Of a stretch of 32,000 nucleotides of DNA, positions 20,873-32,000 are shown piece after piece. The notes under the pieces were generated by a model. That model was not told where the DNA came from, did not search any database, and worked only from the letters and a program-made list of their open reading frames with translations. Both the position numbers and the translations under genes were made by a program. The first letter of the stretch is position 1. Each line of letters starts with the position of its first letter. Source of the DNA: Telmatocola sphagniphila (GTDB taxonomy: Bacteria; Planctomycetota; Planctomycetia; Gemmatales; Gemmataceae); NCBI RefSeq assembly GCF_018398935.1, contig NZ_CP074694.1:2640001-2672000 (forward strand), in the 5' to 3' direction.

Positions 20873-21994
20873 TCACTCGGTGTATCGAGCAACTACTTTG
20901 TCGCGAAGTAATTGTCGAAGCTCAGCCGCTCCTTCGAAAATATCGAACTCTATTCGAAGGTAATACAGCGGGCGCAAACCTAAATTCGATATACGAAGCT
21001 TCACAAAATCTTTCTGCGTTGTGAGAACGGGCATTCCCGCCGGAAACGAGCTTGCCCATTCGCCGAGAGATTTCACATCCGTAGACCGAAAATTGAAATG
21101 ATCGGGATAGGTTCGAAAATCCTGAATCTCCACCCCTAGAGCTTCGAGAGTTTTTCGAAAACTTTCCGGATTGGCCAGACCGCAGAACGCCAAGGCCTTA
21201 TGACCTCGAAAACATTCCGGCGGTAAAGCCTCTGCTCCTTCCTGTTGCCAGATCGCCGGAGCATGTCGCGCCAGAGAGACGGGAAGGCCTGGCTTATACT
21301 TTTGAAACAACTCCCGCCAGGATTTTAGCGATAGTTCCGAAACTCGATCCGCATGGGTGAGAATCAAAGCATCGGCCCGGCGAATACCAGCGAGAGCTTC
21401 GCGGAGATAGCCGCGCGGAAAGATCCGAACCGCTTTTTGAGAGGCATCAAACAGTACGATATTCAGATCCCGCGCCAGCCGGCGATGTTGAAAGCCATCA
21501 TCGAGAATCAAGACTTGGGATTCCAACTCTTCGATGGCCGTGCGAGCCACCGCTGCCCGATTCCTGCCCTGCAAATGGGGCACATCGGGGAGATTTTCTT
21601 CAAGCAATAAAGCCTCGTCATTGGGTCCGGAATCCGAACCGTAGCCCCGACTCAGAATCGCCACCATCAGGTCCTGTTCGCGCAAATATTTGGCAATCCA
21701 CTCCACGCAAGGAGTCTTTCCGGTACCACCCAGGGTTAAATTCCCAATGCTGACCACTGGAACATCCACGGAGGCTGAAGAGAGGATTTTTTTATCGTAA
21801 AGCCAATTCCTGCAGGAGGTTACAAGTCTGTAGAGAAGGCCAAGCAACCCCAGGAAGGCATTGCCAGCCAGAGCGAGCGGGTTAGCAGATTTGTTCTCGA
21901 CGAGATTTTTCCAGGCGGCGACTATCGACAAAGAAACTCCTCGTAACGAGCAACTGACTATAATTAGTTCAGAGGTTAAATTATCATGCTGCAA
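20873..21994 (-). CDS. lpxK: Tetraacyldisaccharide 4'-kinase (lipid A biosynthesis)
   Basis: VPVVSIGNLTLGGTGKTPCVEWIAKYLREQDLMVAILSRGYG is the LpxK P-loop block, and ILDDGFQH is also present. The maximal ORF starts at the ATG at 21994. A more likely start is the TTG at 21931 (LSIVAAWKN...), which has AGGAG 5 nt upstream and removes the overlap with the divergent ORF at 21986. Confidence 0.88.
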   Translation of the reverse strand: MQHDNLTSELIIVSCSLRGVSLSIVAAWKNLVENKSANPLALAGNAFLGLLGLLYRLVTSCRNWLYDKKILSSASVDVPVVSIGNLTLGGTGKTPCVEWIAKYLREQDLMVAILSRGYGSDSGPNDEALLLEENLPDVPHLQGRNRAAVARTAIEELESQVLILDDGFQHRRLARDLNIVLFDASQKAVRIFPRGYLREALAGIRRADALILTHADRVSELSLKSWRELFQKYKPGLPVSLARHAPAIWQQEGAEALPPECFRGHKALAFCGLANPESFRKTLEALGVEIQDFRTYPDHFNFRSTDVKSLGEWASSFPAGMPVLTTQKDFVKLRISNLGLRPLYYLRIEFDIFEGAAELRQLLRDKVVARYTE

Positions 21995-22999: not shown

Positions 23000-25900
23000 A
23001 TGGCAAACGATCCCAAGATACACGATAGCTACGTGAGCGAGACGCCGAGTTACAAATCGTCGCTCGAAACATCTACTCTCCCCGAATGGCGGCACATTCT
23101 CAAGCCGCTCGCTTCGTTGCAATTGACAGTTACTCTCTTCGTACTGTCGCTGCTATTGGTCTTTTACGGCACTTTGGCTCAGAAAACCAGCAGCACCTGG
23201 ACGGCCGTGGATGATTATTTCCGCTCTTACCACGTCTGGATTCCCAATCAGTTGAACGCTGAATTTTTCTCGACCTTCTTCGATAGCTGGGTCGGCAAAA
23301 ATCCGCAATGGAGTGGCTCAATCCCCTTCCCCGGCGGGAAAACCATCGGCCTGCTCCTGCTGGCGAATCTGCTGGCCGCGCATCTCGTGCGATTCAAACT
23401 GACCTGGAAGCGCTCGGGCATTATCATCGTCCACCTCGGCCTGATATTGATGCTGCTCAGCGAATTGGTAACTGGCTATTTATCCGTCGAGTCGCTCATG
23501 ATCATGCGCACGGGGGATCGCACCAATTTTGTCAGCTACTCTCGCGAGTACGAACTGGCTTTCACTAAACAGGGCGATCCCAAATTCGACGAGGCGATCA
23601 CGGTTTCGCAAAAGCTCTTGAAGGATGGGAACAGGATCTCCGATCCGGAACTGCCGGTCGATATCCAGGTCGTTGAATACTGGCCCAACTCTGAGCTGCT
23701 TCTGATCGCCCCGGCGACATTGACTCAGACTTCGGTGACGGTGATTACCGATCCCCGGAGCATGTCCACGGCGGAACACAAGCTCACCCCCACCGATGTG
23801 ATTCTTACGTTGCTTGATGGCAAAAAATATCTACTGACTCGTTCGCGAATCGTAACCGGGGTCGAAGCATCCGAAAAAGAGAACATGCCGACGATTGTGG
23901 TCGACCTTTTTGAAAAAGGGACCGAGAAGAAAATCGGCACTTATCACCTTTCGGATTGGGATTTCTTCTATTCCATTCGCGGCCTCCAAATGTTCCCGGA
24001 AGTGACCGTGGAACACCAGGGCGAAAAGTACACAGTCAGTTTCCGGAATCGCCGTTCTTATCGCCCCTTCTCGATCGAACTGAAGAATTTCGAACACAAA
24101 GTCTATGAAGGAACGCAGATGGCTCGAGATTTCGCCAGCACGGTGAAACTCGTCGATTCGGATGGCTACGAAAAGGACGACATCCGGATCTGGATGAATA
24201 ATCCCCTTCGATACAAGGGCGAATCCTTCTTCCAGCATCAGCATATGGGCGATGGCCAGGGCACCGTGCTGATGGTAGTGAAGAACCCGGCCCGACTTTG
24301 GCCTTATATTTCTTGCGCTATGGTGACTCTCGGTCTGATCGTTCAGTTTTTATTGAGTCTGAACAAAAAAATGAGCACCATGGCCCAACAGGAAGAGAAG
24401 GCACTGGAAGCAAAAGAGGCAAAATTGGCCGCAAAAAAATCGGCCCGAGGATCTGAAAAGCCACCTCACAATTTGGAAGCCGAGGAAAATCCCGATGCGG
24501 TATCTCCCTCACTCCTGCTGACCTTTTTGCCTCTGGCTACCGTCTTAATTGCCGCGACCTGGCTGGCCTCGAAATACAACGAATTGAAAACGGCTTCCAG
24601 CGATCCGGTCTATCGCCAAATCGCTCGACTTCCGATCATGGAAGAAGGTCGCGTGATGCCGCTGGACACCTATGCCCGCTTCCGGCTGCAATCGATCAGT
24701 AACCGCACGGAAGTATTCAAATGGAATGCAGAGAAGCACAAAGCGGAGTACTCGAAATCAGCGCTGGAATGGATTCTCGATACCATGCGGAATTCTTCCC
24801 CGATCGAGGGACCAGGTGCCAAGAATCAGATTTTCCGCATCGATAATGATGAATTACTCGGAGCGATGAAACTGGAGCCGCGGCCAGGTTTCTTCCGTTA
24901 CTCCCTGGAGGAAATCGCCCCTTCCTATCAGAATCTCGTCAAGCATGTCGAGGAAGCGGTGAAAAAAGATCCCAAACAGCGGGAACTTTTCGACGAAAAA
25001 GTCCTTCTGCTGAGAAGCAAAATCGAAGTATATCTCAGCATAGCCTTGGGAAACACTCCACACATTTATCCGCCGATCGCTGCGGGTGGAAGTTGGGAAA
25101 GTGTACACGATCAAGAGGAGAACATTAAGAAGTTCAATCCTTCTGCCGCGCAGCGTGATGAAGCTCGTGAACGTGCCAAGAAGCGAATTGAAAGCATTCT
25201 CATTCAGCAATTCGGTAAACTCGAAAGCGTTCCGCCGAAGATTATGGAACAGGCAAAAGGACTGGAAGACGAAACCACCGCTCGCGAACTCTATGAGGAT
25301 TACCGAAATACTCTGCCGAAATTGAATCGCGACATCGATGATCTCATCGAAGCGCATCAGAATGGGAAAGCGAGTGAACTCGACAAGCTCATGCAGAGCA
25401 TCTGGGATTCCTATCCCAAAGATCCCTCGCCTTACAGTCAATCTAAGATCGAGAGGGAAGTGCGAATGAATTTCCTCTCCCCCTTCTATTATTCGTGTTT
25501 CCTGTATCTGACCTCGGCGATCCTGATTATGGCATCGCTTTTGTTCGGACAAGTGAAGGTCCTCAGCAGAATGGCCTTCGGCTTAACCGCTTTAACGTTT
25601 CTGGTGCACACCACAGCCTTGATTATGCGAATGGTTATTCAGGAACGCCCCCCGGTGACCAATTTATACTCATCGGCCATCTTCATCGGCTGGTTCGCCG
25701 TCGGCCTTTCATTGGTTTTCAGTCGCGTGCTGAAATCCGATCTTCCGACCTTGGCGGGGAATTTCATCGGAGCGGCCACGCTCTACATCGCCAACGTCTA
25801 TCTGAGTGCTTCTGGAGATTCCCTCGGGATGCTGCAAGCGGTGTTGGATACCGACTTCTGGTTGGCCACGCACGTGACCACTGTTACGATTGGCTATAGC

Positions 25901-26374
25901 GTGACTTATCTGGCGGGAATACTTGGTATTGTCTACATTTTTGCCCGTCCATTTGTGGATGCCAAGCAGTCGAAATACATCGCGGGCATGATTTACGGCT
26001 CGACCTGTCTGGCCATACTGTTCAGCTTTCTGGGGACGGTGCTGGGCGGACTCTGGGCCGATGCTTCCTGGGGTCGATTCTGGGGCTGGGATCCCAAAGA
26101 GAATGGGGCCGTACTGGTAGTGATTTGGAATGCCCTGATTCTGCACGCTCGCTGGTGCGGACTCGCCAAGAACCGTGGGATTGCATTGCTGGCTATCGGC
26201 GGCATTATGGTCACCACCTGGTCCTGGTTCGGTACCAACCAGTTGGGGATTGGTCTGCATGCTTACGGTTTCGATAAAGGCTTGGCAGAATTCTGCCAGT
26301 ATACCTGGGAAGGTACGATTCTGCTGATCGGTCTGGGCCTCATCCCCTTCAAGTTCCACCCTAAAGCGGCTTAA
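23000..26374 (+). CDS. ccsBA: Fused System II cytochrome c biogenesis protein CcsBA (ResB/Ccs1-like N-terminal half plus CcsA-like C-terminal half)
   Basis: 1124 aa. ResB-like blocks: LASLQLTVTLFVLSLLLVFYGTLAQ and MNNPLRYKGESFFQ. K/E-rich linker: QQEEKALEAKEAKLAAKKSA. CcsA-type periplasmic block: LPIMEEGRVMPLDTYARF. WWD haem-handling motif WGRFWGWDPKENG at nt 26069-26107, flanked by His-containing TM helices (FWLATHV, ILHARW). Confidence 0.85.
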   Translation: MANDPKIHDSYVSETPSYKSSLETSTLPEWRHILKPLASLQLTVTLFVLSLLLVFYGTLAQKTSSTWTAVDDYFRSYHVWIPNQLNAEFFSTFFDSWVGKNPQWSGSIPFPGGKTIGLLLLANLLAAHLVRFKLTWKRSGIIIVHLGLILMLLSELVTGYLSVESLMIMRTGDRTNFVSYSREYELAFTKQGDPKFDEAITVSQKLLKDGNRISDPELPVDIQVVEYWPNSELLLIAPATLTQTSVTVITDPRSMSTAEHKLTPTDVILTLLDGKKYLLTRSRIVTGVEASEKENMPTIVVDLFEKGTEKKIGTYHLSDWDFFYSIRGLQMFPEVTVEHQGEKYTVSFRNRRSYRPFSIELKNFEHKVYEGTQMARDFASTVKLVDSDGYEKDDIRIWMNNPLRYKGESFFQHQHMGDGQGTVLMVVKNPARLWPYISCAMVTLGLIVQFLLSLNKKMSTMAQQEEKALEAKEAKLAAKKSARGSEKPPHNLEAEENPDAVSPSLLLTFLPLATVLIAATWLASKYNELKTASSDPVYRQIARLPIMEEGRVMPLDTYARFRLQSISNRTEVFKWNAEKHKAEYSKSALEWILDTMRNSSPIEGPGAKNQIFRIDNDELLGAMKLEPRPGFFRYSLEEIAPSYQNLVKHVEEAVKKDPKQRELFDEKVLLLRSKIEVYLSIALGNTPHIYPPIAAGGSWESVHDQEENIKKFNPSAAQRDEARERAKKRIESILIQQFGKLESVPPKIMEQAKGLEDETTARELYEDYRNTLPKLNRDIDDLIEAHQNGKASELDKLMQSIWDSYPKDPSPYSQSKIEREVRMNFLSPFYYSCFLYLTSAILIMASLLFGQVKVLSRMAFGLTALTFLVHTTALIMRMVIQERPPVTNLYSSAIFIGWFAVGLSLVFSRVLKSDLPTLAGNFIGAATLYIANVYLSASGDSLGMLQAVLDTDFWLATHVTTVTIGYSVTYLAGILGIVYIFARPFVDAKQSKYIAGMIYGSTCLAILFSFLGTVLGGLWADASWGRFWGWDPKENGAVLVVIWNALILHARWCGLAKNRGIALLAIGGIMVTTWSWFGTNQLGIGLHAYGFDKGLAEFCQYTWEGTILLIGLGLIPFKFHPKAA

Positions 26375-26515: not shown

Positions 26516-27628
26516 ATGTCAACCAAAAAGGTTCGCGTTGCAATCGTAGGCCTGGGCTTCGGGGCGGAATTCATTCCCATTTATCAAGCCCACCCCAATG
26601 CCGAAATGGCCGCCATCTGCCGACGAAATGTCAAGGAACTTAACGCCTGCGGCGACAAATACAAAATCGCCAAGCGGTACACCAGCTACGAAGATCTGCT
26701 GAAAGATCCGGATATCGATGCCATTCACATCAATAGCCCGATTCCCGATCACGCTTCGCAGAGTCTGGCCGCGCTGAAAGCGGGCAAGCATGTCGCCTGT
26801 ACGGTACCGATGGCCACCACGCTGGATGAACTGCACGTCCTGTGCGACGCCCAGCGAAAGAGCGGCAAAGTCTACATGATGATGGAAACCGTCGTCTACG
26901 CTCGCGAATATCTTTTCGTCAAAGAGCTCTACGACAAAGGGGAGTTGGGTCGTCTGCAATTCCTGCGCGGCAGCCATCAGCAGGATATGGATGGCTGGCC
27001 TGATTACTGGCCAGGCCTGCCGCCCATGCACTACGCCACCCACTGCGTCAGTCCCTGCCTCGCCATTCTCGGCAAGCTGGCCGAGAGCGTTGTCTGCCAC
27101 GGCTCGGGTCGGATTCGCGAAGAGCTCATTCCCAAGTACAACAGCCCGTTCGCCCTTGAAACGGCCACCTTCAAGATTCGCGGTAGCGATGTGGTGGCCG
27201 AAGTGACCCGGAGCCTCTTCGATACCGCCCGGCAGTATCGAGAAAGTTTCGATGCCACGGGATCCAAGAAGTCCTTCGAATGGCAGCAGGTCGAAAATGA
27301 AGATCCGGTGATTCATACCCGCGGCCTGCCGGAGCCGGAAATTCCCCAGCGCGTGAAGGTGCCCGATTACGCCCACCTCTTGCCGGAACCGATTCGCAAA
27401 TTCACCATGCCAGCCGCGATTCAGGACGCCGATCACCTGAGCTTCCTGCAAGGGGGTGGCCACGGTGGCAGTCACCCGCACCTGACGCACAATTTCTTGA
27501 TGGCCGTGCTAGGGGAGAAGGTCGCGATGCCCGATGCACCGACTTCCGCCAACTGGACCGCTGTCGGAATTTGTGCCCATATGTCGGCCATGAAGGGCGG
27601 CGAACGCGTCGAGATCCCGAACTTTTAA
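26516..27628 (+). CDS. Gfo/Idh/MocA-family NAD(P)-dependent oxidoreductase
   Basis: 370 aa. The N-terminal Rossmann block is VRVAIVGLGFGAEFIPIYQAHPNAEMAAICRRN, followed by YEDLLKDPDIDAIHINSPIPDHASQSLAALKAGKHVACTVPMA. GAGAGG lies upstream of the ATG. Confidence 0.88.
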   Translation: MSTKKVRVAIVGLGFGAEFIPIYQAHPNAEMAAICRRNVKELNACGDKYKIAKRYTSYEDLLKDPDIDAIHINSPIPDHASQSLAALKAGKHVACTVPMATTLDELHVLCDAQRKSGKVYMMMETVVYAREYLFVKELYDKGELGRLQFLRGSHQQDMDGWPDYWPGLPPMHYATHCVSPCLAILGKLAESVVCHGSGRIREELIPKYNSPFALETATFKIRGSDVVAEVTRSLFDTARQYRESFDATGSKKSFEWQQVENEDPVIHTRGLPEPEIPQRVKVPDYAHLLPEPIRKFTMPAAIQDADHLSFLQGGGHGGSHPHLTHNFLMAVLGEKVAMPDAPTSANWTAVGICAHMSAMKGGERVEIPNF

Positions 27629-27676
27629 TGAAGCGATGCGGTCTTAGATTCCTAGAGGACAAATGAATCCGTCCGT

Positions 27677-27705
27677 CTGGACGGACTCAAATCGTGTGAT
27701 ATACT
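27677..27705 (+). promoter_or_regulatory. Candidate sigma70-type promoter for the cimA leader (extended -10)
   Basis: CTGGAC (27677-27682), a 17-nt spacer, TG at 27697-27698, then TATACT (27700-27705). The predicted transcription start falls at about 27711-27713, essentially on the leader-peptide ATG (leaderless or near-leaderless). The -35 overlaps the palindrome GTCCGTC-TG-GACGGAC (27671-27686). This is pattern matching only. Confidence 0.3.
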
Positions 27706-27711
27706 CAAGTT

Positions 27712-27798
27712 ATGATTCGAATTCAGGCTATTCGCGTTAACGATGTCACCGAGGTACGTATTGTACGCTCCGTAGTCGTTATTATTCACGGCGAATAG
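27712..27798 (+). CDS. Ile/Val-rich attenuator leader peptide (28 aa)
   Basis: Too short for the ORF track. ATG at 27712 to TAG at 27796-27798 encodes MIRIQAIRVNDVTEVRIVRSVVVIIHGE. It has 6 Ile, 7 Val and 0 Leu codons, with five consecutive branched-chain codons (VVVII, 27772-27786) just before the stop. It lies directly upstream of a terminator/antiterminator pair and of cimA. Confidence 0.6.
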   Translation: MIRIQAIRVNDVTEVRIVRSVVVIIHGE

Positions 27799-27841
27799 CT
27801 CCGGGCGGGTCAGAACTTAGACACCCTCAAAGCCCTGGAGC
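27798..27841 (+). promoter_or_regulatory. Candidate antiterminator helix of the cimA attenuator
   Basis: GCUCCGGGC (27798-27806) starts on the last base of the leader stop codon. It can pair with GCCCUGGAGC (27833-27841) over 9 bp (8 Watson-Crick plus 1 G-U). That sequesters the left arm of the terminator stem. Paired by hand, not folded computationally. Confidence 0.45.
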
Positions 27842-27861
27842 CAAACTCCAGGGCTTTTTTT
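27829..27861 (+). terminator. Intrinsic terminator (attenuator) 41 nt upstream of the cimA start
   Basis: 10-bp stem AGCCCUGGAG (27831-27840) / CUCCAGGGCU (27846-27855) with loop CCAAA. An A-run lies on the 5' side, and seven consecutive T residues (27855-27861) lie on the 3' side. Confidence 0.8.
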
Positions 27862-27902
27862 GTTGATTGGAATACGAGAAAAGCGGTTACGAGAAAAGCT
27901 TT

Positions 27903-29480
27903 ATGAAACGCATCGCCATATACGATACCACGCTCCGCGACGGCAGCCAGGGGGAAGGTGTGAACTTCTCCCTGGAAGATAAGCTTCTTCTCACGAAAAA
28001 GCTCGATGAACTGGGGGTCGATTACATCGAAGGGGGCTATCCCCTTTCCAACCCCAAAGATCACGAATACTTCGTGGCGGTTCAGCAACTGCCATTGAAA
28101 CACTCCAAGGTTTGTGCCTTCGGCATGACCCGCCGGAAGAATTCGCCGCCCGAAACAGACACCTGCTTGAAAGCACTCATCGACTCCCAAGCTCCCGTAA
28201 TTTGCATCGTGGGCAAAACCTGGGATATGCAGGTGCAGCAGATTCTTTCGACTTCACTCGAAGAGAATCTGAAAATGATCGAGGACTCCATCGCTTATTG
28301 TCGATCACTCGGCCGGGAAGTGATGTACGACGCCGAGCATTTTTTCGACGGCTATAAAGCGAATCCGGAATATGCTCTGAAAACCCTGAAGGCCGCGGAA
28401 AAAGCGGGAGCCAGTGTGGTGATCCTGTGCGATACCAACGGCGGCACCATGCCCGAGGTGATTTCCGAGCGTGTAACAGCCGTCTGCAAAGAAATCAAGT
28501 GCCAGGTGGGCATTCACTGCCACAACGACTGTGAACTGGCGGTTGCGAACAGCCTGGCCGCGGTACGCGCTGGTGCGTCGCAAGTACAGGGAACTATGAA
28601 TGGCATCGGCGAACGCTGCGGCAACGTGGACCTGGTCAGCGTTATCGCCAACCTGAACCTGAAATACGGCCTGGAAGTTCTTCAACCAGGAAGTCTGGCG
28701 AAACTGACGGAAGCCTCCCGCTATGTCTACGAGATTGCCAATCTCAACCATCGCAACGGCCAGCCATTCGTGGGACAAAGTGCCTTCGCCCACAAAGGGG
28801 GCATGCATACCCATGCGGTCGCTTTAAATCCGGTGAGCTACGAGCACATCGATCCCACTCAGGTGGGGAACGAACGTCGGGTGCTGGTCAGCGAACTGTC
28901 CGGCCGTTCGACCATACTGACGAAAACGCAGAAATACGACCTGCACAATGATAAACCGTTGATGAGCAAGATCTTGAATCAAGTGCAGGATCTGGAAAAC
29001 GACGGCTATGAATTCGAAGCGGCCGAGGCTTCCTTCGACTTGCTGGTGAAGAAAGTGGCCGGGCTATATAAACCCTGGTTCGATCTCATCGCTTACCGCG
29101 TGAACATCGAACATGACAAAAATAACAAACCGATCACCGAGGCCACGGTCAAGATCGGTCTGGCCGATAAAATCCTGCATACGGTGGCGGAAGGCGATGG
29201 CCCGGTGAACGCCTTGGATGGGGCTTTGCGCAAGGCCCTGCTCTCCTCGTTTCCGCAACTGTCGGAACTGCAGTTGGTCGATTACAAAGTACGCGTCGTC
29301 AACAACCGGGCAGGCACGGCGGCCAAGGTGAGAGTGACCATCGAATCGCGCGATCAGGGCGATGTCTGGGGTACCATCGGAGTTTCTGAAAATATCATCG
29401 AAGCCAGCTGGCTGGCGCTAGTCGATTCCATCGAATACAAGTTGTTCAAGGACAAGGAAGCGGGAGCGAAAACGAATTGA
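27903..29480 (+). CDS. cimA: (R)-citramalate synthase (isopropylmalate/citramalate synthase family, CimA type)
   Basis: 525 aa from MKRIAIYDTTLRDGSQGEGVNFSLEDKLLLTKKLDELGVDYIEGGYP. The RDGSQ signature (rather than the RDGEQ of LeuA), the HCHND block (IHCHNDCELAVANSLAAV) and a C-terminal LeuA-dimer-type regulatory domain fit the long CimA clade. The TTG-extended ORF from 27867 is rejected because it would begin only 6 nt past the terminator U-tract and read through the 12-nt tandem repeat. Confidence 0.88.
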   Translation: MKRIAIYDTTLRDGSQGEGVNFSLEDKLLLTKKLDELGVDYIEGGYPLSNPKDHEYFVAVQQLPLKHSKVCAFGMTRRKNSPPETDTCLKALIDSQAPVICIVGKTWDMQVQQILSTSLEENLKMIEDSIAYCRSLGREVMYDAEHFFDGYKANPEYALKTLKAAEKAGASVVILCDTNGGTMPEVISERVTAVCKEIKCQVGIHCHNDCELAVANSLAAVRAGASQVQGTMNGIGERCGNVDLVSVIANLNLKYGLEVLQPGSLAKLTEASRYVYEIANLNHRNGQPFVGQSAFAHKGGMHTHAVALNPVSYEHIDPTQVGNERRVLVSELSGRSTILTKTQKYDLHNDKPLMSKILNQVQDLENDGYEFEAAEASFDLLVKKVAGLYKPWFDLIAYRVNIEHDKNNKPITEATVKIGLADKILHTVAEGDGPVNALDGALRKALLSSFPQLSELQLVDYKVRVVNNRAGTAAKVRVTIESRDQGDVWGTIGVSENIIEASWLALVDSIEYKLFKDKEAGAKTN

Positions 29481-29530
29481 ATGCAAGGCGATGAAACTCC
29501 CTTGCGTTTAATCTCTTCGGAAAAATATAT

Positions 29531-32000
29531 ATGAGCAACGAAATCGCCAAAGCCTACGACACCAAGGAAGCGCAAGGCCGCTGCCTGCAATTCTGGTTGG
29601 AAAAGGGTTACTTTTCTGCCGATCCTAAAAATCCGGCCGAAGCCTATTCCATCGTCATCCCGCCGCCGAACGTCACAGGGGCATTGCACCTCGGGCACGC
29701 TCTGAACAACACCCTGCAGGATATCCTGATCCGCTGGCGGCGGATGCAGGGCCGCAATACCTTGTGGATTCCCGGGACCGATCATGCCGGGATCGCCACG
29801 CAGAGTGTGGTGGAAAAGCGCATTCTGACGGAAGAGAAAAAGAATCGCCACGACCTCGGCCGCGAGGAACTGGTCAAACGCATCTGGCAATGGAAAGAGC
29901 AATACGAAGCCCGCATCACCACCCAGTTGAAGCAACTAGGCTCCAGTGCGGACTGGAATCGGCAGCGCTTTACGCTCGACCCGATCTGCGCCAAGGCCGT
30001 GCGCGAAACCTTCTTCAACATGTTCAAGGACGGCTACATCTACCGCGGCAAACGGTTGGTGAACTGGGATACGCAACTGCAAACCAGCGTGGCCGATGAT
30101 GAAACTTACACTGAGGATACGGCTGGGGGATTTTGGACGTTCCGTTATCCCGTGGTTGGGAGTGAAGAATCGATTCGCTTTTCGACCACGCGACCGGAAA
30201 CCATGCTCGGCGACTCCGCCCTCTGCGTGCACCCCAGCGATGAACGCTACCAGCATCTGATCGGCAAAAGAGTTTCTTTACCGCATAGCCTGGGTAGGAC
30301 GATTCCCATCATCGCCGATGGCTTGCTGGCCGATCCGACGCTGGGTACCGGATGCGTGAAGGTGACACCGGCTCACGATCCGAACGACTATGCTTGCTGG
30401 CAGCGAAATCCGCAGATTGAGATCATCAACATCCTCAATCCGGACGGCACCATAAACGCTAATGGAGGTAATTACGCCGGGCAGGATCGTTTCAAGGTTC
30501 GCGAAGCGATTGTGAAAGAGATGGAAGAACTCGGGTTTTTTGAAGGCCGGGAAGACCGTACAATTCCTTTGAAATTCAGCGATCGCAGCAAGACGCCGAT
30601 TGAGCCCTATCTCTCCGATCAGTGGTTCGTGAAAATGGCTGATCGCGAGGATGGTAAGCCGGGCCTGGCTCAAATGGCGCTCGATGCCGTGACTTCCGGT
30701 GCGGTAAAATTTTTCCCCGAAAGATACGCCAAGACCTATCTCGACTGGCTGGGGGAAAAACGCGACTGGTGCATCAGCCGGCAGTTATGGTGGGGGCACC
30801 GAATACCTGTATGGACTAAAGTGATTTCATCATCGGATATGAGGTACAAGCTTGAACACGACGAACAATGGTCTGATTTTTTCCTTGCAGGCGAAGCTTC
30901 AGAACATCTTATTGCGGTTCAAACTTCGACTGAAATGTACCACGTGACCGGACATAGAAAATCTCACCAATGTTTTGGGGAAGCAATTCAGACTTCAGAG
31001 AAAGAAGAAGTCACATGGTTTATCGCACCTTCACCTTCACAAAGTGACAACCCTAACTTCGTGTCTTGGCTGAATTCGCATGGATTTACGCAAGATTCTG
31101 ACGTCCTCGACACTTGGTTCTCCTCCGCGTTGTGGCCGCATTCGACTCTCGGCTGGCCGGAAGAGACACCCGAGTTCAAAAAGTATTACCCAACCAGCAC
31201 CCTGGTGACTAGCCGCGACATCATCACTTTGTGGGTGGCCCGCATGGTGCTGACCGGCCTCTACAACACCGGCAAAATTCCGTTCCGACATGTTTACGTT
31301 CACCCGAAGATGCTGGATGGATTTGGCGAAACCATGTCCAAATCCAAGGGCAACGGGGTGGATCCGCTCGATATCATCGATATTTACGGCACGGATGCTT
31401 TGCGTTTTGGAATGGCAAGCTTGGCGACCGAAACCCAGGATAGCCGATTACCAGTCAGCAACATCTGCCCTAACTGCGGTACTTCGGTTCCGGTCAAGCA
31501 AGAGCACATGTACATGCGGACGAAGAAGCTGAATTGCCCTTCGTGCAAACAGCCATTCCGTCCGGGGGGTCCCTGGCCCGATGAAGACAAGGAATTGAAG
31601 ACGGCCAAGCAAGGCGCAGAACGCTTCGAACTGGGTCGAAACTTCGCCAACAAGATGTGGAACGCCGCTCGATTCATTTTGATGAATATCGAGCCGGGCT
31701 TTGTGCCTCAAAAACTCGATTACGCAAAGCTCCCGATTGAAGACAAATGGATTCTCAGTCGCTTATCCACGACCTCGCGAGAAATTACCGAACATCTCGA
31801 AAGCTACCGATTCAGCGATGTCGCCAAGCAGATTTACGAATTCACCTGGTCGGAATTCTGCGACTGGTACATCGAAATGGCCAAGGGTCGCACGAAAGGC
31901 GACTCCGCAGAGAGCGTTCAATCGGTACTGGTCGGTGTGCTCGATGGGATTCTGAAACTGGTACATCCCGTGATGCCCTTTGTGGCCGAGAGCATCTGGC
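29531..32000 (+). CDS. valS: Valine--tRNA ligase, N-terminal ~823 codons (3' end beyond the right edge)
   Basis: Absent from the ORF track because there is no stop in the window. ATG at 29531: MSNEIAKAYDTKEAQGRCLQFWLEKGYF...PPPNVTGALHLGHALN (HIGH motif), TRPETMLGD, CVKVTPAHDPND, WCISRQLWWGHRIPVW, DVLDTWFSSALWP, KMSKSKGN (KMSKS motif), RNFANKMWNA. Stop-free to nt 32000. Confidence 0.95.
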   Translation, partial: MSNEIAKAYDTKEAQGRCLQFWLEKGYFSADPKNPAEAYSIVIPPPNVTGALHLGHALNNTLQDILIRWRRMQGRNTLWIPGTDHAGIATQSVVEKRILTEEKKNRHDLGREELVKRIWQWKEQYEARITTQLKQLGSSADWNRQRFTLDPICAKAVRETFFNMFKDGYIYRGKRLVNWDTQLQTSVADDETYTEDTAGGFWTFRYPVVGSEESIRFSTTRPETMLGDSALCVHPSDERYQHLIGKRVSLPHSLGRTIPIIADGLLADPTLGTGCVKVTPAHDPNDYACWQRNPQIEIINILNPDGTINANGGNYAGQDRFKVREAIVKEMEELGFFEGREDRTIPLKFSDRSKTPIEPYLSDQWFVKMADREDGKPGLAQMALDAVTSGAVKFFPERYAKTYLDWLGEKRDWCISRQLWWGHRIPVWTKVISSSDMRYKLEHDEQWSDFFLAGEASEHLIAVQTSTEMYHVTGHRKSHQCFGEAIQTSEKEEVTWFIAPSPSQSDNPNFVSWLNSHGFTQDSDVLDTWFSSALWPHSTLGWPEETPEFKKYYPTSTLVTSRDIITLWVARMVLTGLYNTGKIPFRHVYVHPKMLDGFGETMSKSKGNGVDPLDIIDIYGTDALRFGMASLATETQDSRLPVSNICPNCGTSVPVKQEHMYMRTKKLNCPSCKQPFRPGGPWPDEDKELKTAKQGAERFELGRNFANKMWNAARFILMNIEPGFVPQKLDYAKLPIEDKWILSRLSTTSREITEHLESYRFSDVAKQIYEFTWSEFCDWYIEMAKGRTKGDSAESVQSVLVGVLDGILKLVHPVMPFVAESIW

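Follow-up and report, generated by a model that had tools for sequence, protein, structure and literature searches.

A probable ribosome-mediated transcription attenuator with an isoleucine/valine leader peptide upstream of cimA in Telmatocola sphagniphila and related Planctomycetota

What regulatory function might reside in the 274 nucleotides (nt) that separate the citramalate synthase gene cimA from its upstream neighbor in Telmatocola sphagniphila? The locus lies within a 32,000-nt stretch of contig NZ_CP074694.1 (positions 2,640,001 to 2,672,000), hereafter called the window, where the upstream gene stops at position 27628 and the ATG of cimA is found at 27903. A first-pass annotation, made from the letters of this stretch, had proposed that the gap between the two genes, the length of which we confirm, holds an attenuator that senses isoleucine and valine. 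Evidence from sequence, folding and comparison of related loci leads us to a similar answer: with a probability of roughly 0.8, the gap encodes a ribosome-mediated (leader-peptide) transcription attenuator controlling cimA and probably valS, the valyl-tRNA synthetase gene that follows. Four of the features that define such an attenuator are found here, namely a short open reading frame (ORF), clustered Ile and Val codons (I/V codons), an intrinsic terminator, and an antiterminator that shares the 5' arm of the terminator.

The short ORF encodes the peptide MIRIQAIRVNDVTEVRIVRSVVVIIHGE, in which 6 Ile and 7 Val make up 13 of the 28 residues and no Leu occurs. This ORF, including its VVVII run, is present exactly as the first-pass annotation had described it (Table 1). 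Its I/V fraction of 0.46 is an extreme outlier among 105 ATG-initiated ORFs of 20-40 codons in the six frames of the window, for which the mean is 0.099 (standard deviation 0.063), and apart from the VVVII run that begins at 27772, no frame of the 32 kb contains five or more I/V codons in a row. The stop codon TAG occupies positions 27796-27798, and three codons (HGE) lie between it and the last Ile codon.

Downstream of the ORF, two mutually exclusive helices are predicted to compete for the same RNA segment. The arms of the terminator, AAAGCCCTGGAG and CTCCAGGGCTTT (27829-27840 and 27846-27857), are 100% complementary; the hairpin has a free energy of -20.8 kcal/mol, the duplex of its arms one of -22.5 kcal/mol, and the terminator ends 41 nt before the ATG of cimA. 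A hairpin followed by seven U had been noted previously and stands, with a stem that measures 12 base pairs (bp) at 27829-27861 instead of the 10 bp at 27831-27861 originally given. The antiterminator helix is formed by GCUCCGGGC (27798-27806) and GCCCUGGAGC (27832-27841), which make 9 bp with U27836 bulged and a duplex energy of -18.1 kcal/mol. The 9-bp alternative helix claimed earlier thus exists, with the partner strand placed one position off (27833-27841) and the bulge omitted. When folded as a whole, the 150-nt leader (27712-27861) has a minimum free energy (MFE) of -62.3 kcal/mol (z -5.2) and consists of a long hairpin, closed by a helix between GCUAUUCGC and GCGAAUAGC with a duplex energy of -16.8 kcal/mol, and then the terminator. 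A further hairpin in the spacer, GGGCGGGUC...GACACCC, is predicted to sequester the 3' half of the antiterminator strand in the terminated conformation.

These elements suggest the following mechanism. Transcription would start at about 27712 from a dedicated promoter, and a ribosome would enter the 28-codon leader at its 5' AUG with the RNA polymerase still on the leader. If Ile-tRNA and Val-tRNA were plentiful, the ribosome would get to the TAG and its footprint would hide the antiterminator strand; the segment 27832-27841 of the 5' arm would then be free, the 27829-27857 hairpin would form, and the transcript would end at about 27861 in the U-tract. If charged tRNA-Ile or tRNA-Val were scarce, the ribosome would stall in the IVRSVVVII cluster and leave the antiterminator strand uncovered, which would pair with the 5' arm before the 3' arm is made. 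The polymerase would then read into cimA and valS, the products of which would serve Ile synthesis and Val charging, respectively.

Is this arrangement conserved? We examined cimA loci of Planctomycetota from two sources, 80 from one-genome-per-species contigs and 80 from metagenome contigs, of which 153 in total were analysable. The CimA proteins of these relatives are 57-77% identical to that of the window, and the genome-derived loci span Planctomycetia and Phycisphaerae. A strong hairpin with a U-tract is found no more than 400 nt 5' of cimA in 120 of the 153 loci. At 95 of these 120 loci, an ORF with at least four I/V codons among six consecutive ones ends no more than 90 nt before the terminator, and at 80 of the 120 the I/V run is, in addition, separated from the stop codon by no more than nine codons. 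The full arrangement was observed at 5 of 143 other terminator-like hairpins on both strands of the same loci (Fisher p ~1e-30). In a further control, windows with at least five I/V codons out of six were found in 16 of 79 loci in the forward direction, in 2 in the reverse direction, and in 0.5 in dinucleotide shuffles. The best I/V windows of the leaders contain 254 Ile, 164 Val and 3 Leu codons.

The geometry of the related leaders is also similar to that of the window. The distance from the stop codon to the 5' arm of the terminator has a median of 31 nt (interquartile range 28-34) and is 30 nt in the window, and the last I/V codon mostly precedes the stop codon by 3-5 codons in the relatives and by 3 in the window. 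Typical leader ORFs, most of them 19-34 codons long when counted from the first ATG, end in VVVVITTG, SIIIICEITDSQ, VGVIVVIIGREGP or AVGIIIVVEVRP directly before the stop. The closest leader homologue (locus L083) has the sequence GCTCCGGGCGGGTC in common with the window, directly 3' of the stop codon. Genes located upstream vary among the loci and the leader stays with cimA. It is conserved in Gemmata-type genomes as well, for example at locus L005 of Gemmata sp. IIL30. Other carriers are Bremerella cremea JCM 17758 (L057) and, with a less clear leader, Novipirellula rosea JCM 17759 (L063).

Both helices are conserved along with the ORF. In 54 of 80 leaders, the upstream segment that pairs best with the terminator 5' arm has its centre 0 to +10 nt from the first base of the stop codon, and in 48 of the 80 this segment overlaps the stop codon; it falls within -10 to +15 nt of the stop in 74 of 80, versus 44 of 80 in a control with the arm reversed, and the pairing has a median z of -2.3 relative to shuffled partners. 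We aligned 77 leaders with MAFFT, without structural information; in this alignment the mean column identity of the leader body is 35%. For the terminator, 87% of the cells are paired and 111 double-sided changes are observed, versus 33.5 in shuffles (0 of 500 as high). For the antiterminator in register i+j = 121, the corresponding values are 67.6% paired versus 62.2% and 116 double-sided changes versus 66.8, again with 0 of 500 shuffles as high; this result is somewhat favoured, because the register was picked after the table of slid registers had been seen. Register 121 is better than every slid register and is the one that the window uses for five pairs. The register tried before it (i+j = 120) was rejected, with 48.4% of the cells paired, equal to shuffles. 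A conserved I/V-rich ORF 5' of cimA orthologues and compensatory changes in both helices, the comparative check that the first-pass annotation had put forward, are thus both found.

The sequence of the terminator stem, in addition to its pairing, is conserved across the phylum: the 5' arms of loci L001-L160 in the alignment give the consensus AGCCCTGAGGCC...GCCTCAGGGTTTTTTT. At many loci, the middle of the stem lies opposite the leader stop codon in the antiterminator (e.g., GGCC-TAA-GGGC), which may explain the constraint on its sequence.

Codon choice within the leaders was compared with that of neighboring genes. All six Ile codons of the window leader are ATT, a codon that accounts for 40% of Ile codons in the genes of the window (p ~0.004). 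Its Val codons are GTA (three), GTC (two) and GTT (two), with no GTG; GTA thus makes up 3 of 7, versus 10% in the genes of the window. The same tendencies are seen in the related leaders (80 loci), where 73% of Ile codons are ATT and 25% are ATC, versus 24% and 74%, respectively, in the adjacent cimA genes, and where GTA constitutes 16% of Val codons, versus 5% in the same cimA genes. A bias towards the non-preferred ATT at sensing positions would be expected if the leaders were selected for sensitivity to tRNA charging. It could instead result from a constraint at the RNA level, such as avoidance of G and C.

A separate feature was observed inside the leader ORF of 14 Gemmatales-type relatives. 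It is an invariant hairpin of 14-15 nt, GCGCAGGGAGUGCG(C) or GCGCAGGGAGTGCG(C), with a 5-bp stem and a GGGAG loop, and it codes for AQGVR. Its carriers are loci L001 (positions 2820-2833), L003, L004, L006, L011, L012, L068, L081, L082, L084, L086, L088, L089 and L148. The hairpin occurs once per locus, in the leader only, shows no synonymous variation, and has no counterpart in the window. Possible roles are those of a pause hairpin, a Shine-Dalgarno-like loop or a protein-binding site. A general pause hairpin just 5' of the I/V run gave a weak signal in the leaders (mean z -0.35), and for this reason we do not claim one.

A sigma-70-type promoter is predicted in front of the window leader (Table 1) and would place the start of transcription at about 27712. 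Promoters that fit the pattern TTGACN-17-TANNNT with a score of at least 9 are found 5' of the leader ORF in at least 62 of 80 related loci, and 77 of the 80 related leaders have an in-frame start codon after the promoter. Since the leader has a promoter of its own, the terminator is more than the mere end of the upstream gene. Overlapping the -35 element of this promoter, there is an inverted repeat, TGAATCCGTCC/GGACGGACTCA (27664-27689, -15 kcal/mol), which is unique in the window. It could be a U-less terminator of the upstream oxidoreductase gene, a terminator for the minus strand, where TTTGTCC follows, or an operator.

Several observations weigh against a leader-peptide attenuator and are considered here together. 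Folding of the full leader with ribosome masks of 28 nt, a check that the first-pass annotation had also put forward, failed to discriminate between ribosome positions: at equilibrium the terminator has a probability (P) of 1.00 wherever the ribosome is placed, so the switch works only if it is kinetic. In classical attenuators, too, the terminator wins at equilibrium on the full leader. Because the full leader was non-discriminating, the transcript was modelled as it would be before the 3' arm is made (27712-27845). On this transcript, P of the antiterminator in the window is 0.8-0.9 with the A site at any codon up to Ile25, and it is 0.21 at Gly27, 0.06 at Glu28 and 0.04 at the stop. Across the 80 leaders, upstream pairing of the 5' arm has a median P of 0.75 with the ribosome at the I/V codons and of 0.45 with the ribosome at the stop (Wilcoxon p 2e-11); 34 loci show a difference above 0.3, and a single locus shows one below -0.3. 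These models agree with the proposal made earlier, that the terminator forms when a ribosome occupies the stop codon and the antiterminator forms when the ribosome stalls at VVVII.

The same model without a ribosome yields the antiterminator with P 0.79 in the window and with P above 0.5 in 66 of the 80 relatives. The classical branch, in which absence of translation means termination, therefore appears in our models to be missing or beyond their resolution; the default state would be read-through, and termination would need a ribosome at the stop codon. We found no convincing anti-antiterminator (1:2) hairpin in the window that would enforce termination in an untranslated leader. The helix 27727-27735:27791-27799 is the counterpart of a 1:2 helix; the overlap of only 2 nt with the antiterminator strand makes it unconvincing as an anti-antiterminator, and the two helices can coexist. 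Such a hairpin belongs to the trp-type model, and the basic mechanism works without it. Translation of the leader is a further weak point: the ATG at 27712 lies 6 nt past the -10 element and no Shine-Dalgarno sequence precedes it, from which we infer that the leader is probably translated from a leaderless 5' AUG. In several related leaders the ATG is located 6-10 nt past the -10 element, and leaderless short ORFs are common in Actinobacteria. On the comparative side, no leader could be recognised at roughly one in three cimA loci. The exact CimA protein of the window returned no record when looked up, and the genome and metagenome contig collections contain no CimA more than 77% identical to it, so that the window's own leader cannot be traced over short evolutionary distances. 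Finally, the loci used for the covariation counts are interrelated, and the shuffle controls ignore phylogeny.

Which genes would this element regulate? The downstream gene had been annotated as a citramalate synthase, and this is borne out: residues 4-520 of the 525 match TIGR00977 (citramalate synthase) with 710.2 bits, the cut-off of this NCBIfam equivalog being 450 bits. Models of LeuA also match the window protein, with scores under their cut-offs. The start of valS lies 50 nt 3' of the cimA stop, and a consensus scan of the spacer between the two genes found no promoter or terminator on the plus strand. A hairpin, UUGAAUGCAAGG...CCUUGCGUUUAA (29476-29510, -19.5 kcal/mol, z -3.2), spans the cimA stop. 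It lacks a clean U-tract and may act as a weak terminator, a processing site or a stabiliser. Co-transcription of cimA and valS is likely, but because of this hairpin it is not certain. Minus-strand ORFs after cimA were considered as genes and rejected, as they have no Pfam matches and are shadows of valS on the plus strand.

Among the Planctomycetota loci, cimA is followed by valS on the same strand in 101 of 160, with a median gap of 107 nt and a gap of at most 150 nt in 63 of the 101. The last 16 codons of the leader contain 3.4 Val codons where valS adjoins and 2.0 where it does not (p 0.016, uncorrected, in a small test that ignores phylogeny). The number of Ile codons is equal in both groups, and several leaders without a nearby valS contain Ile only. 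The regulated unit probably includes valS, which would account for the presence of Val codons alongside Ile codons in the leader.

Directly 5' of the cimA ATG we observed a perfect 12-nt direct repeat, TACGAGAAAAGC, at 27873-27884 and 27888-27899. Each copy is 82% complementary to the terminator U-tract (27853-27863), and folding of the read-through RNA predicts a pairing between the U-tract and the second copy, directly ahead of the cimA start codon, which might add a translational layer. No equivalent repeat was noticed in those relatives' sequences that were inspected. The coordinates of all features are listed in Table 1.

Table 1. Positions of the predicted leader elements and neighboring genes within the 32,000-nt window.
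Feature	Position	Strand	Description
Upstream gene	26516-27628		Gfo/Idh/MocA-type oxidoreductase, from weak sub-threshold NCBIfam matches
Promoter	27678-27705	+	Putative sigma-70 type; -35 TGGACG, 16-nt spacer, TG-extended -10 TGaTATACT; consensus match 9/12
Leader ORF	27712-27798	+	28 codons and TAG; peptide MIRIQAIRVNDVTEVRIVRSVVVIIHGE
Long leader hairpin	27727-27799	+	Closing helix GCUAUUCGC (27727-27735) : GCGAAUAGC (27791-27799); 9-nt inverted repeat, 100%
Candidate regulatory codon cluster	27760-27786	+	IVRSVVVII; core VVVII at 27772-27786
Antiterminator 5' strand	27798-27806	+	GCUCCGGGC; first base is the last base of the stop codon
Spacer hairpin	27803-27828	+	GGGCGGGUC...GACACCC; in MFE structures
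Intrinsic terminator	27829-27861	+	12-bp stem, 5-nt loop, seven U (27855-27861) after G-C core
cimA	27903-29480	+	Citramalate synthase, 525 amino acids from ATG; TIGR00977 equivalog; putative regulated structural gene
valS	29531-32000	+	Valyl-tRNA synthetase, HLGH motif; partial, runs past the window end; frame 3

How does the proposed element compare with known systems? Neither the window nor 18 related loci match any Rfam 15 family at the gathering score, the models of riboswitches, T-boxes and amino-acid leaders included. At E-values up to 10 the matches were NsiR1, STnc310 and 23S-methyl, which we regard as chance matches to the terminator hairpin. We found no description of a cimA leader peptide or attenuator, or of attenuation in Planctomycetes, in the full-text literature, mostly of the non-subscription kind, so a prior description is possible.

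The leader-peptide attenuators of bacteria include ilvL, ivbL, trpL, leuL and pheM. The proposed element is similar to E. coli ilvL (ilvGMEDA) and ivbL (ilvBN) in that a short ORF ends in Val/Ile runs (VVISVVVIIIPP in ilvL and AAVVVVRVVVVVGNAP in ivbL), that antiterminator and terminator are mutually exclusive, and that synthesis of branched-chain amino acids would be controlled. It differs from both in several respects: there is no sequence homology, Leu codons are absent, cimA of the citramalate route takes the place of ilv genes, the leader is probably leaderless and has no effective 1:2 anti-antiterminator, and the host belongs to Planctomycetota rather than Proteobacteria. In trpL, the regulatory codons lie about three codons before the stop, the antiterminator strand starts at or just after the stop, termination occurs about 60-70 nt past the stop, and the terminator is more stable than the antiterminator, so that the decision is kinetic. 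The codon placement, the position of the antiterminator strand at the stop codon, the distance from the stop to the predicted termination point and the greater stability of the terminator are shared by the cimA leader. Unlike trpL, where 1:2 pairing blocks 2:3 pairing without translation, the helix 27727-27735:27791-27799 and the antiterminator coexist here.

As in the E. coli pheST leader (pheM), a tRNA-synthetase gene, here valS, lies behind a leader rich in cognate codons. In contrast to pheST, the synthetase gene is the second one, after a biosynthetic gene, its co-transcription is a prediction, and the association of Val codons with valS is weak. At its regulatory positions, the E. coli leu leader contains a rare Leu codon (CUA); a non-preferred synonymous codon is likewise favored in the cimA leader, for a different amino acid (Ile ATT). 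Outside Proteobacteria, branched-chain leader peptides have been described from comparative genomics for ilvB and leuA of Actinobacteria, including an upstream ORF of Corynebacterium ilvB (PMC1262725, PMC10272879). These leaders precede other genes in another phylum, and the titles and abstracts of the reports mention no cimA leader.

Other explanations of the same observations need to be weighed. Attenuation might be sensed not by a ribosome, but by a factor acting in trans, either an RNA-binding protein like TRAP, PyrR or HutP or a small ligand, with contiguous RUN triplets or a leader hairpin as the binding site and the ORF incidental. A constraint at the RNA level is indeed indicated by the AQGVR hairpin of 14 Gemmatales-type relatives, in which synonymous changes are lacking, and the absence of a Shine-Dalgarno sequence before the window ATG fits with this idea. 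However, what is conserved across the phylum is amino-acid identity, with interchange of Ile and Val and varying third positions, rather than any nucleotide motif. Without exception the run shares its frame with a stop codon at a fixed spacing, and this stop codon forms part of the antiterminator strand. Nearly all of the related leaders have start codons, the window and the greater part of the phylum lack the invariant hairpin, and no riboswitch or T-box of Rfam matches. We consider sensing in trans improbable on these grounds. A slightly smaller chance may be given to the possibility that the 150-nt transcript (27712-27861) is primarily an independent or dual-function small RNA acting in trans, its position before cimA being secondary. 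It would have its own promoter, a strong terminator and a stable fold (-62.3 kcal/mol, z -5.2), and a terminated leader RNA would accumulate regardless of its role. Yet synteny with cimA is strict in more than 100 genomes with differing upstream genes, the primary sequence of the leader body is poorly conserved, and a purely non-coding role would explain neither the pattern of I/V codons, nor the preference for ATT, nor the fact that the stop codon overlaps the antiterminator.

It is also conceivable that the product of the ORF is itself functional, as a small hydrophobic protein (a membrane peptide or a toxin, for example), and that the hairpin is the terminator of this ORF or that of the oxidoreductase gene. 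The ORF does have an ATG and many hydrophobic residues, and a hairpin followed by seven U would terminate any upstream transcript. Against such a protein, sequence and length of the peptide are not conserved outside the I/V run, and the window peptide, with R, D and E breaking it up, does not form a transmembrane helix. Moreover, the leader is linked to cimA where upstream genes differ, the antiterminator covaries, and the oxidoreductase gene is separated from the leader by a second stem-loop (27664-27689) and a promoter. This makes a functional small protein very unlikely. Mere coincidence of an I/V-rich ORF with a terminator, for which nothing speaks beyond the small size of the elements, is effectively refuted, as the ORF stands far outside the distribution for the window and the enrichment of the arrangement over other terminators is 55-fold. 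The three findings that none of these four explanations accounts for jointly are the frame-specific conservation of I/V codons with variable nucleotides, the fixed place of the stop codon within the antiterminator strand, and a linkage to cimA that is strict although the upstream genes vary. Ribosome-mediated attenuation remains our preferred interpretation.

Further away from the leader, the genes of the window at 23000-26374 (plus strand) and 20873-21994 (minus strand) are otherwise unrelated to amino-acid metabolism. Among them are LpxK, an ABC-2 permease, a sulfatase-like protein and a protein of 1124 amino acids with a sub-threshold match to a CcsB-type cytochrome c biogenesis domain. A scan of the window for tRNA and tmRNA genes found none.

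The mechanism proposed here is a known one, and judging from the sequences compared, the cimA leader very likely represents a conserved and uncatalogued leader family across Planctomycetota. More tentatively, we suggest the possibility of a new regulatory RNA family in Planctomycetia and Phycisphaerae, a two-input attenuator (Ile for cimA, Val for valS) that would be leaderless, "on" by default for want of an anti-antiterminator, and tuned by non-preferred ATT codons. To our knowledge, gene regulation in Planctomycetota is almost unexplored. The proposed leader would extend leader-peptide attenuation to the citramalate route of Ile synthesis and possibly to a tRNA-synthetase gene, and it would provide the phylum with a computationally definable, conserved cis-regulatory RNA that is outside Rfam 15. 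One sensor would probably couple a gene of the Ile pathway with the Val-tRNA synthetase. For annotation, it points to three features that gene callers overlook: a putative promoter, a small ORF and a conditional terminator.

Spatial separation of transcription and translation has been claimed in the Gemmata-type lineage (PMC6212462), and contrary views have been put forward (PMC6554331, PMC5394234). The mechanism proposed for the cimA leader needs a ribosome within about 60 nt of the polymerase, and its conservation in Gemmata and other Gemmataceae therefore bears on this disputed claim. If our interpretation is correct, the leader would constitute genetic evidence for co-transcriptional translation in Gemmata-type bacteria and would offer a simple reporter for examining the claim that the two processes are separated there.

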